DNA of 64,000 nucleotides, from the NCBI GenBank assembly GCA_964434255.1, contig CAYSUL010000001.1, positions 27,720 to 91,719 of the forward strand, given 5' to 3'. Shown one piece after another: positions 8,020 through 55,765 of this stretch. Made by a program: the position numbers and the translations under genes. Position 1 is the first letter of the stretch. The number at the start of each line of letters is the position of its first letter. The notes beneath the pieces were generated by a model, which saw only the letters and a list, made by a program, of their open reading frames with translations, searched no databases and was not told the origin of the DNA. This stretch comes from an uncultured Candidatus Saccharibacteria bacterium (GTDB taxonomy: Bacteria; Patescibacteriota; Minisyncoccia; Phycocordibacterales; Phycocordibacteraceae).

Positions 8020-8093
8020 GCGCGGTTAGCTCAGCTGGTTAGAGCGACCCCTTGACGTGGGGTAGGCCGGGGATTCGAATTCCTCACCGCGCA
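8020..8093 (+). tRNA. tRNA-Val (anticodon GAC)
   Basis: 74 nt. GCGCGGT acceptor, D-arm AGCTCAGCTGGTTAGAGC, anticodon loop TTGACGT. No CCA. Confidence 0.9.
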
Positions 8094-8180
8094 CACTTGG
8101 ATAAGTCGACGTAGCTAGTGCTAGTAGTGATACGCTCATATATGGAATTGGCGCCATTGAATTAATACAGGAGAAGTCTG

Positions 8181-22329: not shown

Positions 22330-22666
22330 TAGCGGACCCAGGTCTGATGATCGCTGCGTATCGCAAGATGCGTAGAGGAAAGTCCGAACACAGGCCGCAT
22401 TCGTGCGGCAGCACGGTAGCGGGTAACGCCCGTCCGCCGTAAGGCGCGAGGTGCGAACAGAGACGTCCGCGGCGAAAGCCAAGGAGGCCCTTCGGGGTCA
22501 GGCCCGCCGAGATGCGGGATTGAAACGGCTAAATCCTTACCACTGTGCAAGGCCGTGCCCTTCGGGGAGCGCCGCTCGAGGCTATCGGTAACGATAGTCC
22601 CAGATAGATGGTCATCGCTCGTGGTCTCCACGAGTACAGAATTCGGCTTATGGCCTGGATCCGCTA
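22330..22666 (+). ncRNA. rnpB: RNase P RNA, bacterial type A
   Basis: P4 strands AGGAAAGTCCGAAC and ACAGAATTCGGCTTA. P1 pairing tagcggacccaggtc / ggcctggatccgcta. Multiple GNRA/UUCG-capped helices. Confidence 0.85.
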
Positions 22667-39214: not shown

Positions 39215-39255
39215 GGGGGCATTATACGGAATTACTGAGGGAAGCGGAATCGCGG

Positions 39256-39274
39256 CCTGGGACGATGCTGGAAC
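39256..39274 (+). repeat. L-type repeat copy A (CCTGGGACGATGCTGGAAC)
   Basis: Member of a 5-copy family. Followed by a 33-nt leader almost identical to the one after copy C. Confidence 0.7.
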
Positions 39275-39322
39275 CCTTATGCAATCTATGTTAGGTTCTG
39301 TCTAGACTGAATGGAGGCGGAT

Positions 39323-39697
39323 ATGAATATCCCAATCGGTACTCGCCTGGGCGTGGCGCCCAGCCTTCTTGCCCAAATCCTTGCCGGCTTTACTGGTAAG
39401 CCCCCGCCGATTCGCACCGGCAGCGTGGTGTACCGGGAAATCGGCGAGCGGAGCAAGCTACCCCTGTACACCCTGGCGTTCGACGATGGTAGCACTGACT
39501 GCTATTTCGAATCTCAGATGATCATTCCCGAGACTTGCGTGTGCGGGACCCAAATGGATGAGGTCTGCTTCATCGACGGAACCGACAACTGTCTCGCCTG
39601 CCACGAGCTACATGTGATGGAACAGACTGGCGCAGGGGTTGTCTTTTCTCCAGCTCATAAACGTCGGGCATTCAATCTCGTCCGCCCCGAAAAGTGA
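39323..39697 (+). CDS. hypothetical zinc-ribbon protein (cargo of module A)
   Basis: GGAGG RBS 5 nt before the ATG. Cysteine pairs C-x-C...C-x2-C suggest a zinc ribbon. Confidence 0.55.
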   Translation: MNIPIGTRLGVAPSLLAQILAGFTGKPPPIRTGSVVYREIGERSKLPLYTLAFDDGSTDCYFESQMIIPETCVCGTQMDEVCFIDGTDNCLACHELHVMEQTGAGVVFSPAHKRRAFNLVRPEK

Positions 39698-39711
39698 GAC
39701 CACCCACAGAG

Positions 39712-39737
39712 CCACCCGACCCTGTCGGGTGGTTTTT
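39712..39737 (+). terminator. terminator ccacccgac-cct-gtcgggtgg-TTTTTGTTTT
   Basis: Perfect 9-bp stem plus a long T-run. Confidence 0.85.
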
Positions 39738-39746
39738 GTTTTACCA

Positions 39747-39771
39747 CTGGCAGACTAGGCCTCGAATCTAC
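39747..39771 (+). repeat. R-type repeat copy 1 (CTGGCAGACTAGGCCTCGAATCTAC)
   Basis: tRNA-3'-end-like. Overlaps the stop codon of the convergent HAD gene. Confidence 0.7.
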
Positions 39772-44039: not shown

Positions 44040-44546
44040 CTAGATATATCGCTGGAGTGAACGGGCGAGCTCGTTCGTGCGAGTTCGCCTCTTGGTCTGC
44101 GCCGGTTGATACGCCACGCGAGCGTGCTCCAGGCAGTACGGCCCATCGTCCTGCCGCCTTCCGCAGAAAGTGAAGCCGTCGGTGAATGGGTCGCCGATAG
44201 GCCATTTGCACATGTGAGCGTCGAGCGTGAGGATGGTCGCCGTGCCCGGAGCTTCCTCGACATACTGCACCGGCGCCGGGATGGGCGCGGTGGCGACAAT
44301 CGGAGCAGGCTCAGCGACACGCCGACGTGCGACAGACGCTGCAGCCGGACGGGGCGAACGCGGTGCCTTGAACACGGGCCGGGCCGGTTTCGATGGCGTC
44401 GCACGACCCGAAAGCCCGAGCCGGTGGACTTTGCCGATGACAGCGTTGCGCGTCACGCCGCCCAACTGTTTAGCTATCTGGTCTCCAGAGAGACCGTCCT
44501 GCCAGAGCTTCTTGAGACTCTCTACGCGTTCGTCGGTCCAACCCAT
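44040..44546 (-). CDS. gcrA: GcrA-family cell-cycle transcriptional regulator
   Basis: N-terminus MGWTDERVESLKKLWQDGLSGDQIAKQLGGVTRNAVIGKVHRLGLSGR matches the GcrA DNA-binding domain almost residue for residue. C-terminal CKWPIGDP...FTFCG motif. Confidence 0.8.
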   Translation of the reverse strand: MGWTDERVESLKKLWQDGLSGDQIAKQLGGVTRNAVIGKVHRLGLSGRATPSKPARPVFKAPRSPRPAAASVARRRVAEPAPIVATAPIPAPVQYVEEAPGTATILTLDAHMCKWPIGDPFTDGFTFCGRRQDDGPYCLEHARVAYQPAQTKRRTRTNELARSLQRYI

Positions 44547-46195: not shown

Positions 46196-46310
46196 GCGGG
46201 CGAGTGTTCTAGGAGATAGGAAGATCTTTGACAGCCGGAACATCGTCGCGCGCAGAAATGCGAGCGAGGTCCAACATACGCGCCTTTACTCGAACTCTAA
46301 CGCAACGAAT

Positions 46311-46556
46311 ATGACTATATTCCGCGCTCTCGGTCTCTTGGTGCTTATCTTGGTCCTGCAATCGATGGTTCCTGCTATATGGAGCGAACTCGAGGCTACT
46401 ATCATCGCGTTCTTGCACGGTGCACGCATATCAGCTGGCGTCGCGACGAGTATTGCTGCTTCTGCTGGAAGCACCAACCTATCCGTCCCGCTCTCCGCTA
46501 TGCCCTTCACCACCCCGCCCTTCCCCCTTCCGCAAGCCGCGTATACCAACCTCTAA
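46311..46556 (+). CDS. possible small secreted protein (81 aa)
   Basis: N-terminal signal-like helix and Pro-rich C-terminus. Atypical third-position usage and no RBS. Two tandem hairpins follow. Confidence 0.3.
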   Translation: MTIFRALGLLVLILVLQSMVPAIWSELEATIIAFLHGARISAGVATSIAASAGSTNLSVPLSAMPFTTPPFPLPQAAYTNL

Positions 46557-46574
46557 CTCTCTCCCGTCGCCTAA

Positions 46575-46640
46575 GCCAATTCCTCGGGATTGGCTTTCGT
46601 ATTTCCATAAGAAGAAAGCCGCTCCAGGGAGCGGCTTTCT
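46575..46640 (+). terminator. two tandem hairpins (gccaattcc-tcg-gggattggc; agaaagccgctcc-aggga-gcggctttct)
   Basis: The second is a perfect 13-bp stem followed by TCTTG. Confidence 0.55.
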
Positions 46641-46785
46641 TCTTGCATCAGACGAATTGTTTACGGCTTAGTTGTAAAAATGCTACATCACAAGTGATGG
46701 AGGTAAGCCGTAAACAGCTCGTCTCATACGCACGATTACATAAAAGATATCATATATCCTTTTGCAAGTCAACAGCCCCCCGGTA

Positions 46786-46805
46786 GGCTCGGACGGTGTT
46801 GGAAC
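46786..46805 (+). repeat. L-type repeat copy E, degenerate solo copy (GGCTCGGACGGTGTTGGAAC)
   Basis: 15/19 identity to the L core. Precedes the candidate sRNA region. Confidence 0.45.
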
Positions 46806-47005
46806 CTTGATTTGTCTTAGAATCTCTATACTCTAACCTCGGGTGTTCGGGCAACACAATTGGCTAGCCCAAACGTGGCCATTAGTTCCTGCGCAGGCAG
46901 GAGCTGGTCTCAGAAGTAGCGATTAGCTACCACAAGGTGACGAACTCAATACCTGAGAAACGCTGACAGAGATCATTCCTCGACTTTTGGTGCTCGAACA
47001 CTTCC

Positions 47006-47032
47006 AGACCACTTCATGTGGTCTTTCTTTTT
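47006..47032 (+). terminator. terminator agaccac-ttcat-gtggtct-TTCTTTTTG
   Basis: Perfect 7-bp stem plus a T-run, 13 nt before repeat L-B. Confidence 0.8.
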
Positions 47033-47044
47033 GCGTACTAAAGT

Positions 47045-47073
47045 CTGCTGGGGGTCTGGGACGATGTTGGAAC
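47045..47073 (+). repeat. L-type repeat copy B (CTGCTGGGGGTCTGGGACGATGTTGGAAC)
   Basis: Core sits inside a GGGGTC...GACCCC hairpin (47051-47090). Confidence 0.7.
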
Positions 47074-47102
47074 TTCACTAATACGACCCCATGACCCGAT
47101 AG

Positions 47103-47130
47103 TTGATAAATATAGACATTTGTGTTATAA
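47103..47130 (+). promoter_or_regulatory. AT-rich promoter TTGATA-N16-TTATAA for the module B gene
   Basis: -35 at 47103-47108, -10 at 47125-47130. AGGAG RBS at 47152-47156, 7 nt before the ATG. Confidence 0.45.
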
Positions 47131-47163
47131 AGACAAAAGTGATGCATCGCTAGGAGACGTCTA

Positions 47164-47571
47164 ATGGAAGAGGTTCCCTCTCGCTCTTTTCTGGTCTTCA
47201 GGACCTTTCCTGACACCTGGGAATTGCCGGGTGAATACAGCAATGTACTTGAGAAGCATCTTTGTTCTATCCCAACGGAACTAATACTTCCGTGGCCGGT
47301 CAACATTTGCCCCAGAAATATTGGGGATGAGATCTGCTTCTCGAGCATGTTGACCCCGTATGCCGACTTCGTGGTGGAGAAGTTTGAGTACATCTACAGT
47401 CGCAAGAAAGGGGTTACTCAGTGGGTTCGTTTAAGACCTACTGAGGACGGCATGGACTTTAACCTCAACACGCTGCTTCACGCAGCCGATGAGGGGTTCC
47501 TGTTCGAATCTGAAGTCCCAATTTCACGAGTGTTGTACGACGCCGGCCTTCGACACACGGCCGTCGGATGA
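47164..47571 (+). CDS. hypothetical protein (cargo of module B), ~50% GC
   Basis: 135 aa. Strong RBS. Lower GC than host genes. No recognisable domain. Confidence 0.55.
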   Translation: MEEVPSRSFLVFRTFPDTWELPGEYSNVLEKHLCSIPTELILPWPVNICPRNIGDEICFSSMLTPYADFVVEKFEYIYSRKKGVTQWVRLRPTEDGMDFNLNTLLHAADEGFLFESEVPISRVLYDAGLRHTAVG

Positions 47572-47616
47572 CATTGCAGCAGCCCTCACACTTCGATGAT
47601 GTGGGGGCTTTAATAT

Positions 47617-47642
47617 TGCTGGCAGACTAGGGATCGAACCTA
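47617..47642 (+). repeat. R-type repeat copy 2 (TGCTGGCAGACTAGGGATCGAACCTA)
   Basis: tRNA-3'-end-like. Its CTA is the stop codon of the convergent metallopeptidase gene. Confidence 0.7.
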
Positions 47643-48043
47643 TTTGTCCCCTCCTCCTCCCGACCCTGCACATGCGGCTCATCCATGCCGAAATAGTGGC
47701 CGAGCTCATGCCAGATAGTTTCGCGTATCACGATGCGTATCGCATCCCGGAATTCCCTATCCATCTCTTCTGCCTCTTCGATGATAGGTAGCCGATAGAG
47801 CGTGATGGTGTCCGGCATGGTGCCACCAATGCCATACTCGCTGCCGCGCTCCGAGAGCGGAACGCCATGATACAGACCGAGCAGGGTCTCTTCGTGTTCG
47901 AGCCCCTCTTCCTTCCTAACTTCTTCGCTCAGCTCGTCCTCGATCAGAAGCGCGACGTTCTTCACCGACCGCTCGAATCGCTCCGGCACCTTCTTCCACT
48001 CCTCTGCGGCTATCGCCTCGAATTCACGTATATCCATGTCCAT
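47627..48043 (-). CDS. zincin-like metallopeptidase-family protein (DUF1025-like)
   Basis: 138 aa with HExxH motif WHELGHY. Confidence 0.75.
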   Translation of the reverse strand: MDMDIREFEAIAAEEWKKVPERFERSVKNVALLIEDELSEEVRKEEGLEHEETLLGLYHGVPLSERGSEYGIGGTMPDTITLYRLPIIEEAEEMDREFRDAIRIVIRETIWHELGHYFGMDEPHVQGREEEGTNRFDP

Positions 48044-54774: not shown

Positions 54775-54806
54775 CTGCTGCTGAGAGTCCGGGACGATGT
54801 TGGAAC
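54775..54806 (+). repeat. L-type repeat copy C (CTGCTGCTGAGAGTCCGGGACGATGTTGGAAC)
   Basis: Followed by a leader CTCTTATGCAATGCATGGTAGGTTCTGTCTAGAC, near-identical to the one after copy A. Confidence 0.7.
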
Positions 54807-54857
54807 TCTTATGCAATGCATGGTAGGTTCTGTCTAGACACATTCAGGAGAACGTTA

Positions 54858-55151
54858 ATGCCCTCAGGAAACCGAAAGCAGTGGTTGCTCGGGAGTGCTA
54901 CTCCCACATTCCCTGCACGCTTCTGCTCCACCTCTGAAGGAAGGCGGATGTTCCCGGACATTCTCCAAGATGCCTTCGGGCTCAAGAGCATCACAGGCTT
55001 TCATCGCTACGGACGAACGCTCGGTGCGATTATCCCCATCGAGGCCGTTCGGCTTCTCGCCGGCTATCCGGATGCGGTGGACGACGATACGAAGGTCCGC
55101 ATTCGGAACGCAGCCCTGAACCTCCTCGAGGGACAAGGTGATCTACGTTGA
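54858..55151 (+). CDS. hypothetical protein, possible Phd/YefM-like antitoxin fold (cargo of module C)
   Basis: AGGAGA RBS 6 nt upstream. KSITGFHRYGRTLGAIIPIEAVRLL resembles the antitoxin beta-strand region. No toxin partner seen. Confidence 0.45.
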   Translation: MPSGNRKQWLLGSATPTFPARFCSTSEGRRMFPDILQDAFGLKSITGFHRYGRTLGAIIPIEAVRLLAGYPDAVDDDTKVRIRNAALNLLEGQGDLR

Positions 55152-55191
55152 TGGAAGAACCTCACACTCCGCGCCCTGAAAGCGCGGAGTT

Positions 55192-55221
55192 CTTGCTGAG
55201 GGTCTGGGACGATGTTGGAAC
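55192..55221 (+). repeat. L-type repeat copy D (CTTGCTGAGGGTCTGGGACGATGTTGGAAC)
   Basis: Starts 41 nt after the module C gene. Boundary of the AT-rich islet. Confidence 0.7.
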
Positions 55222-55223
55222 TC

Positions 55224-55706
55224 TTACACTCCGATTTGAGGAACCGCGCCCGCCATATACAGAAACATATAAATCAGGAGGACAATGAAAAAACCGATGG
55301 CAAGAAGTTTTCTATTCATTTCTTTACTTTGTACAAACCAGATATGCTTCCAAAATTTATCGTTAGCCCTTTTTGAGAGAAGAACTATCAATCCAAGCAC
55401 AATGGACAGAAACGCAACTACCGGAAGTATGGCTACCAATGCAAGACCCAAAAAACTCAGTGGAGGATAGTTACTTACAATCAGACCTGCACTCAAGAAC
55501 ATTACTCCAAGCAGAAGAGACCGTGCAGGATTTAGATAGCGATAATACCAATAATCTTTCCCGAAACTATCGTCACCTGATTCTCCCTCTTTAGCCGTTA
55601 AATCTGATGTCCACTCCTTATAGAATTTTCTTGAGAAAAACATTGCAAAGCCATAATAGATAGCAGCCACGCCAGTTGCAATTAAGAAGAGTGGAAACCA
55701 GGTCAT
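55224..55706 (-). CDS. hypothetical polytopic membrane protein in ~40% GC islet
   Basis: 160 aa, about four TM helices. The last 8 codons read into the sequence just after repeat L-D. Confidence 0.5.
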   Translation of the reverse strand: MTWFPLFLIATGVAAIYYGFAMFFSRKFYKEWTSDLTAKEGESGDDSFGKDYWYYRYLNPARSLLLGVMFLSAGLIVSNYPPLSFLGLALVAILPVVAFLSIVLGLIVLLSKRANDKFWKHIWFVQSKEMNRKLLAIGFFIVLLIYMFLYMAGAVPQIGV

Positions 55707-55739
55707 ATAAGAAGTATATCGCCTGCAGGATGAGTCCGT

Positions 55740-55765
55740 CCTGGGAGACTAGGTATCGAACCTAC
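55740..55765 (+). repeat. R-type repeat copy 3 (CCTGGGAGACTAGGTATCGAACCTAC)
   Basis: tRNA-3'-end-like hairpin taggt-atcga-accta. Its CTA is the stop codon of mltG. Confidence 0.7.

Follow-up and report, generated by a model that had tools for sequence, protein, structure and literature searches.

The locus considered here is a tandem array of short units bounded by two related sequences, L and D, which lies in 64,000 nucleotides (nt) of DNA from an uncultured member of the Patescibacteria (hereafter the window, to whose positions all coordinates refer). Its closest described counterparts are integrons, the integrase-less modules of certain mobile elements, and tycheposons. In integrons, short units in one orientation usually carry one small accessory gene each, every cassette boundary is marked by a repeated site, attC, which is a 55-140-nt imperfect palindrome with R''/L''/L'/R' boxes, and new cassettes enter at a distinct terminal site, attI, adjoined by the gene intI. 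The cis-mobilizable elements (CIMEs) of streptococcal integrative and conjugative elements (ICEs) and the pdif modules of Acinetobacter plasmids are integrase-less, att-flanked modules that are mobilised in trans and accrete in tandem; their sites are ICE att sites or XerC/D dif-like 28-mers, and there is no mimicry of tRNA-Gln. CIME and pdif modules are not known to form long single-gene arrays in Patescibacteria. The tycheposons of Prochlorococcus are integrative elements that target tRNA genes and form tandem arrays, each element being kilobases long and having an integrase, and often replication genes, inside it (bioRxiv 10.1101/2020.12.28.424599).

The array in the window lies between 46786 and 47642. 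We find that L and D delimit mobile units, which vary from one near-identical strain to another, that such arrays are associated with tRNA-Gln, and that their cargo is one small gene per unit or, as here, an RNA. On balance we favour a reading in which the stretch around the array that is free of open reading frames (ORFs) has two origins: the left part would be an ancestral intergenic zone, and the right part, from a degenerate L copy (L') onwards, a hypervariable array of mobile cassettes, one of which carries an RNA gene of ~190 nt. More tentatively, and with a little more doubt than belief, we propose that L/D arrays constitute an undescribed integron-like gene-capture platform of Patescibacteria (Paceibacteria) with a recombinase acting in trans, and that 46806-47045 is the first RNA-only cassette and holds a new class of structured RNA.

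Patescibacteria genomes are tiny, and little is understood of how accessory genes are acquired by them and lost again. A hypervariable, tRNA-Gln-linked array with an RNA-only cassette is in our view the most valuable result of this analysis, the host group being ultra-small groundwater bacteria. If the proposal is true, these organisms would possess a compact gene-shuffling system that follows an integron-like logic with other sites and with no linked integrase, and the 28-nt L site would provide a handle for locating flexible genes in metagenomes of the candidate phyla radiation (CPR). The RNA cassette, with its defined candidate of ~190 nt, would further indicate that the arrays are vehicles for structured non-coding RNAs as well.

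Comparison with described systems

L/D arrays work like integron cassette arrays but lack the features that define integrons, namely the attC architecture and an adjacent intI. The likeness is extensive: the arrays consist of short units in the same orientation, usually with one small accessory gene of diverse kind (GNAT, NUDIX, hydrolases, unknowns); a repeated site stands at each cassette boundary and a distinct terminal site, D, takes the role of attI; the content turns over fully between near-identical strains; and ORF-less cassettes occur occasionally. In contrast to attC, L is a sequence-conserved site of 27-33 nt derived from the 3' end of tRNA-Gln. Further differences from integrons are that no intI-like gene adjoins the terminal site (the flanking families are given below), that L/D cassettes often have their own promoters and genes in either orientation, and that the location of an array is either tRNA-Gln or a tRNA-Gln-like pseudo-site at the 3' end of a gene. 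We considered and rejected L as an attC site, as it contains GTTGGAA but no RYYYAAC partner and no inverse core, and the hairpins found upstream of L, each with its U-tract, are those of ordinary terminators.

With tycheposons the arrays share integration at tRNA 3' ends, partial tRNA copies that flank the units, the outward displacement of older units by successive integrations, and a location in strain-variable islands of streamlined genomes. L/D units differ from tycheposons in being single genes or an RNA and in having no integrase, and their repeat has a conserved arm that is not tRNA, CGATGTTGGAAC. As in CIME and pdif modules, the cargo is bounded by recombination sites, with a recombinase that would here be encoded elsewhere. 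A literature search returned no description of such arrays in Patescibacteria; its coverage was incomplete, and an earlier description is possible.

Structure and distribution of the L/D arrays

In L, ~15 nt that resemble the tRNA-Gln 3' end (reading TCCCAGACnnCCAGC on the reverse complement) are joined to the CGATGTTGGAAC arm. The window has five copies of the L motif, GGGACGATGTTGGAAC, all of them on the plus strand, as against 0.44 copies expected by chance. The bases to the left of TGCTG vary, i.e., there is no conserved left-flank target motif. D (CTGGCAGACTAGGsnTCGAAyCTA) corresponds to the T-arm and acceptor 3' strand of a tRNA-Gln of the U1:A72 type (CTAGG TTCGATC CCTAG TCTGCCA G). It is present three times in the window, each copy downstream of one or two L and abutting the 3' end of a minus-strand gene (HAD hydrolase, Zincin_1 and YceG, respectively), and none of the three forms part of a complete tRNA by the Rfam and tRNA check.

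The array runs in the order L' (46786), RNA cassette, L (47046), 135-aa gene and D (47619), and stands at the 3' end of the Zincin-like gene. At its left boundary, L' (46786..46805, plus strand) has kept the cassette-side half, CGGTGTTGGAAC, with two mismatches in the 16 positions of the core (46790-46805), and has lost the tRNA-like half. The intact L (47046..47078, plus strand; TGCTGGGGGTCTGGGACGATGTTGGAAC...) forms the left end of the cassette of the 135-aa gene (47164..47571, plus strand), a gene that matches no Pfam family and that has its own promoter-like sequence (TTGATA-17-TATAAA, 47103-47131) and its own terminator-like hairpin. D (47619..47642, plus strand; reverse complement TAGG TTCGATC CCTAG TCTGCCA G) closes the array and overlaps the last codons (RFDP-stop) of the minus-strand Zincin_1 gene (47627-48043).

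A metagenome scan with the L core gave 120 loci, among which 49 Patescibacteria-like loci passed a filter for the extended L consensus, (T/A)GCTGGnnGTCTGGGACGATGTTGGAAC. Those of the 49 that are multi-copy hold 2-9 L copies in one orientation at a median spacing of 588 bp, and in 69 of the 72 inter-L intervals examined a single ORF, in either orientation, fills most of the interval. The cassette units measure 0.3-1.3 kb, with L usually placed directly after the T-tract of a terminator and often ahead of a TTGACA-17-TATAAT promoter. The Pfam families that they carry are varied and include HAD, HD, NUDIX, GNAT, Ham1, inositol monophosphatase, peptidase S51, Bro-N, Ltp and chagasin, along with others. 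According to ARAGORN, 17 of the 49 loci have a tRNA-Gln gene on the strand opposite to L, just beyond the last cassette in the examples inspected, and arrays terminate either at a tRNA-Gln gene or at D, that is, at a tRNA-Gln 3' fragment. Partial tRNA-Gln copies are found 40-80 nt from the true tRNA in three loci (L093, L111 and L128). The genes neighbouring D or tRNA-Gln belong to Zincin_1, HAD, YceG, FtsX, DnaX, M10 and UDG, and among the top 25 families listed no recombinase or integrase family is found for the 69 cassette ORFs or for the flanking ORFs.

Two further L...D loci are present in the window itself, one at 39247-39770 (L, a 128-aa gene, D) at the stop codon of the HAD hydrolase gene, and one at 54779-55764 (L, a 97-aa gene, L, a minus-strand gene for a 160-aa membrane protein, D) at the stop codon of YceG. 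At both, D provides the TAG stop of the flanking gene. The 160-aa membrane gene is clearly foreign, its GC content at third codon positions (GC3) being 0.38.

Several smaller observations concern the two sites. A long form of L runs into CTTATGCAATnnATGnTAGGTTCTGTCyAGAC and then into a Shine-Dalgarno sequence and ATG (window 39259-39307 and 54791-54839; loci L204, L166, L206, L156, L169 and L264), and it is probably a common cassette promoter with a 5' untranslated region (UTR), the TTGGAA of L serving as -35 and TAGGTT lying at 18 nt. The sequence that follows L', at 46806-46835, resembles this extension with a 5-nt deletion. Near-empty units also occur, for instance two D copies 99 nt apart beside tRNA-Gln (L093:7820-7942) and two L copies 49 nt apart (L136:1236-1300), and these could be the footprints of cassette excision. 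In viral contigs (IMG/VR, L214-L263) the L 16-mer is found mostly within one conserved coding sequence (...CTGGATCAGGCTGTTGTCTGGGACGATGTTGGAACCTTCGACGG...) that appears unrelated to the cassette repeat. L was also considered as a sigma-54 site (TGGAAC-N5-TGC), a reading that we rejected because TGGCAC-N5-TTGC has a spacing longer by one base.

Turnover between strains

The contigs compared with the window were those matching the exact 135-aa protein, and comprise same-strain contigs plus three informative ones. One of the latter (L089) matches the window solely over 47046-47642, from L through D, at 100% identity and with unrelated DNA on both sides; a second (L087) departs from the window right after 47642; and the third (L088) departs before about 47024-47046, keeping the right flank and having another gene and terminator upstream of L. 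These breakpoints therefore mark L and D as the boundaries of the moving unit. Contigs of the Hainich H51 strain add a comparison at the level of the whole array: their flanks match the window at 96-98% identity as far as 47618, at the left edge of D; past that point the array is an altogether different one, in which a PurA-like gene is accompanied by at least five further cassettes.

The Zincin 3' end can also be followed across relatives. In one whose Zincin is 79% identical at the protein level (L264), D occupies the same position over the Zincin 3' end and is followed by four L copies and six small genes, and then by MsrA. Two relatives that have neither L nor D (L266 and L267) have a Zincin gene ending CGC TTC GAT CCC TAG. 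The natural RFDP-stop codons of Zincin (...TTC GAT CCC TAG) thus mimic the tRNA-Gln T-arm, TTCGATCCCTAG (window 47627-47642; L266:4395-4415), and this mimicry is presumably why the Zincin 3' end is used as a site. The Zincin_1 end apparently serves as a secondary attachment site in the window, in L264 and in L268, hence in three or more related lineages, and L265 has a degenerate D. A search of genome contigs based on MsrA found only relatives of at most 60% identity, none of them syntenic.

The array-free relatives also bear on L', the leftmost recognisable array junction at the Zincin site. The half of L' that has lost its tRNA-Gln likeness (...GGTAGGCTCGGA) resembles the sequence downstream of Zincin in these relatives (...CTCAGGCTAGGGA), and L' would thus have the look expected of the first, oldest junction at a pseudo-site.

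With regard to mechanism, we suggest that a recombinase encoded elsewhere would insert and excise cassettes at the common GCTGG.../tRNA-like core, and that new cassettes would enter beside D, as integron cassettes do at attI.

A candidate small RNA as cassette cargo

The interval 46806-47045, which measures 268 bp from L core to L core, is the sole ORF-less interval of more than 100 bp among the 72. Within it we place a candidate structured small RNA of ~190 nt (46840..47032, plus strand). For 46833-47035 the plus-strand fold has an energy of -69.7 kcal/mol (z = -3.45), as good a value being reached by 0 of 200 shuffles, and the minus strand is less exceptional (z = -1.96). The predicted RNA is closed at its 5' and 3' ends by a 13-bp helix (46841-46853 with 46987-47003), the 3' arm of which lies just ahead of a terminator found by the terminator scan (47006-47024 plus the U-tract TTCTTTTT). 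Between the two arms, hairpins are predicted at about 46861-46881 and 46883-46906 and a branched domain at 46907-46975, after which comes an invariant and, in the predicted fold, largely single-stranded stretch at 46976-46986. The palindromes CCTGCGCAGG and GTAGCGATTAGCTAC are found in the same region. Upstream are two -10-like boxes (46818..46832, plus strand), TAGAAT at 46818-46823 and TATACT at 46827-46832, the second of which lies 8 nt ahead of the closing helix. Transcription would start ~7 nt past TATACT, and the RNA would be closed by the 13-bp helix ahead of an intrinsic terminator.

In all the DNA fetched the RNA has a single homologue, at L186:972-1182, with 84% identity over 202 nt; when 66 array-bearing loci (380 kb) were searched with nhmmer, blastn and a covariance model (R1), the window and L186 were the only matches, and the RNA core had 0 matches in viral contigs (IMG/VR). 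The homologue lies in an unrelated array: it has a degenerate L upstream (only GTTGGAACCTT retained) and a terminator and a good L downstream, the sequence outside the flanking L copies is unrelated to that of the window, and the genes downstream of the RNA are on the opposite strand. TATACT aligns there with TACACT, at 7-9 nt from the helix, and the L186 copy also folds stably (z = -2.55) with the closing helix again present. The 38 differences between the two copies, over 204 columns, are non-uniform. The longest identical run, of 52 nt (46950-47001; p = 1.4e-4), contains the largely unpaired, CU-rich stretch GAUCAUUCCUCGACUUUUGG, and differences fall on 9 of 112 paired columns as against 24 of 79 unpaired columns (p = 8e-5) of a structure that was predicted from the same alignment. 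The consensus structure comprises 56 pairs: three are broken, four carry a change on one side that is compatible with pairing, and a single pair, in the terminator, has undergone a compensatory change from A-U to G-C. For the hairpin GCUACC-NNNN-GGUGAC the loop is GCAA in strain L084 and GUAA in L186, both of them GNRA loops, and ACAA in the window.

Coding potential is not apparent. The two ORFs that overlap the region mechanically (46379-46786, 135 aa; 46923-47393 on the minus strand, 156 aa) are flat in GC by codon position, and in the public same-strain contigs gene callers report nothing between MsrA and the 135-aa cassette gene. All six frames carry stops in both copies, the indels are single-base and not multiples of three, and the concatenated six-frame peptides of the RNA region have no match among 5.8 billion proteins at E<=10, so a decayed gene is unlikely. 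Rfam gave no match in 46806-47035 either at the gathering threshold (whole window) or at E<=10 (46300-47300); elsewhere in the window it reports RNase P RNA and six tRNAs.

The homologue in an unrelated array, the stable folds, the non-random substitutions and the lack of ORF or protein similarity support, at the level of sequence, a novel candidate small RNA. It resembles independent bacterial small-RNA genes in its -10-like box, its structured body of ~190 nt, its GC-rich hairpin with U-tract and its conserved single-stranded CU-rich stretch. It differs from the usual small-RNA gene in that it has no family match and no canonical -35 and is mobile cassette cargo, and in that no target stood out in the window. 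As its most likely mechanism we suggest that the RNA would be a stable trans-acting regulator carried as cassette cargo and acting via its conserved, largely single-stranded segment, which is the least supported step of our proposal. The segment might act by base pairing, for its UCCUC is anti-Shine-Dalgarno-like, or alternatively by protein binding.

The first-pass annotation of this DNA had listed, across the ORF-free stretch, tandem terminators, a stem with a nested CATCAC-AA-GTGATG hairpin, an L copy, TATACT, palindromes and a final terminator, all of which we recover within 1-2 nt of where it put them, and we agree with it that there is no coding-like ORF. It had offered, as alternatives, a small RNA (6S-like or novel) and an att region tied to the repeat family. 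Both are partly right and they are not alternatives, because one of the cassettes has the RNA as its cargo. The more important half is the att region, for L, derived from tRNA-Gln, marks cassette boundaries in a hypervariable array; the novel small RNA has the sequence evidence set out above in its favour, whereas the 6S-like reading is unsupported because Rfam is empty in the RNA body. Covariation, to which the annotation had pointed as a check, gives a divided answer from the two sequences: the terminator has its compensatory change, and the RNA body without the terminator has none, with four compatible one-sided changes and three broken pairs.

Alternative explanations

The most serious alternative is that the L'-to-L interval is a dead, functionless remnant, for instance a protein cassette that has decayed or a residual 3' UTR and its terminator, and that its structure and conservation stem from recent common ancestry. 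We consider this unlikely, at perhaps one chance among several, yet it draws on a number of the points that weigh against our two-origin reading. There is no canonical promoter, for no -35 hexamer stands 16-18 nt from the -10-like box and the promoter scan was empty on the plus strand there; only two independent RNA copies are at hand; and three predicted pairs are broken in L186, true covariation being seen in the terminator alone. In both copies L' is degenerate, and the unit may therefore have lost the ability to move by itself. The 100% identity of other cassettes across contexts indicates recent transfer, and the 84% identity of the RNA could likewise be due in part to recent transfer rather than to selection. 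The contrast between paired and unpaired columns is biased because the structure came from the same alignment, and the conserved single-stranded segment, compared with the 49 translation-initiation regions of the window, did no better than shuffled seeds. Against a remnant stand the lack of any relative of the six-frame translation among those 5.8 billion proteins, with no frame open in both copies; the strongly non-uniform differences, seen both in the 52-nt invariant run and in their depletion in predicted stems; and the preservation, in both copies, of the closing helix, of the position of the -10-like box, and of the terminator with its compensatory change.

Other points weigh against the proposed mobility of the array rather than against its RNA. 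No recombinase was found beside the arrays or tRNA-Gln, nor among the window ORFs checked. L and D consistently differ from each other, and as the L-type and D-type sequences remain distinct within arrays the crossover point is uncertain; this distinctness would favour exchange at the common GCTGG edge. Alternatively, L...D may be a transposon-like unit of which L and D are the ends. The ends of IS200/IS605-type or other miniature transposons were rejected as an explanation, L and D being related direct, not inverted, repeats.

Another possibility, which we judge quite improbable, is that L is the promoter or operator motif of a regulon, with the RNA acting as a 5' leader or riboswitch on the 135-aa gene by way of the terminator at 47006-47032. 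L does contain TTGGAA, its long variants add TAGGTT at 18 nt, a Shine-Dalgarno sequence and ATG, and a terminator placed right behind the closing helix recalls the expression platform of a riboswitch. The cargo ORFs, however, lie in both orientations relative to L, in many cassettes L is followed by a separate TTGACA-17-TATAAT promoter, and L/D-bounded units change contexts and vary between near-identical strains, so that the context data largely refute a regulon motif. As for a leader, the genes after the RNA in L186 are on the opposite strand, the 135-aa cassette also occurs without the upstream RNA, and there is no match to a riboswitch family.

A role for the RNA in cassette mobility, as a guide or bridge-like RNA or as a recombination cofactor reading L and D, is considerably less probable still. 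The RNA is located directly between two L sites, and short segments of it are complementary to L (CCAGACC to GGTCTGG and AGTTCC to GGAACT), but these amount to just 6-7 nt and CCAGACC is not kept in L186; the RNA is present in 2 of ~150 cassettes, most arrays doing without it, and no IS110-type or other recombinase is nearby. Least probable of all is a known housekeeping RNA (6S, signal recognition particle RNA, tmRNA, RNase P or a known ribozyme). The candidate's size and 5'/3' closing helix are 6S-like at first glance, but Rfam is empty in 46806-47035 even at E<=10, the fold is multi-branched and not a rod with a central bubble, a strain-variable cassette is an unfit place for a housekeeping gene, and the RNase P RNA of the window lies elsewhere. 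A type III toxin-antitoxin pair formed by the RNA and the 135-aa protein was rejected, as the RNA has no tandem repeats and the units occur independently.

The left part of the ORF-free stretch

Under the two-origin reading, 46573-46785 is best read as an old convergent intergenic zone in which MsrA, plus a possible 81-aa ORF, would face the minus-strand Zincin-like gene. The possible ORF (46311-46556) sits immediately upstream of the first of two terminators, an intrinsic-terminator-like hairpin recognised by terminator scan and fold (46573..46606, plus strand; AAGCCAATTCC-TCGG-GGATTGGCTT), which has a 10-bp stem at 46573-46596 followed by a T-rich tail. The second, recognised by its fold, is palindromic and has no defined strand (about 46608-46645; arms AAGAAGAAAGCCGCTCC..GGAGCGGCTTTCTTCTT): a GC-rich stem, GCCGCTCC/GGAGCGGC, stands between an A-run and a T-run, and the 36 nt are 94% self-complementary with a single central mismatch. 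Judging by its A-rich and T-rich flanks this terminator is probably bidirectional. In the array-free relative L266 the Zincin gene is directly trailed by a terminator, GCCGGGCTCC-AGG-GAGTCCGGC, that is similar to window 46608-46645.

Next comes a 75-nt imperfect hairpin (46650..46724, strand undefined), the core of which is a perfect stem with the nested CATCAC/GTGATG hairpin. The first-pass annotation gave this stem 12 bp; the stem is indeed present, but it measures 13 bp (46658-46670 with 46704-46716) and is part of the longer structure. The region folds with z = -9.1 on the plus strand and -9.3 on the minus strand. A promoter-like site on the minus strand was found by promoter scan at 46772-46744 (TTGACT-17-TATCTT with TG), and the hairpin is probably either an ancestral intergenic or 3'-UTR structure or a minus-strand small RNA served by that site. 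At E<=10 Rfam offers a weak sub-threshold match to BjrC1505 (22.9 bits versus a gathering score of 50), and the weak matches at 46569-46723 are terminator-driven.

Strain L084, which is 97.6% identical to the window overall, has its differences clustered at 46743-46785, the 43 nt to the left of L', and at 46242-46270. At the latter, an indel zone past MsrA, stands AACATCGTC, a 9-mer shared with the L reverse complement, which may be an inverted-L relic or a chance match. The possible ORF at 46311-46556 (plus strand) is hydrophobic and absent from public gene calls, and two of its three L084 substitutions are at third codon positions.

Other features of the window

ARAGORN adds a tRNA-Val at 8020-8094 that is not in the Rfam list. 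The RNase P RNA is of class A (22334-22666, plus strand) and scores 120 bits against a gathering score of 100, such low scores being typical of divergent CPR sequences. A minus-strand gene at 44040-44546 encodes a full-length member of the GcrA family (Pfam E = 2.4e-55). GcrA is known above all for cell-cycle regulation in alphaproteobacteria, and the genome in which it is found here is apparently one of Paceibacteria.

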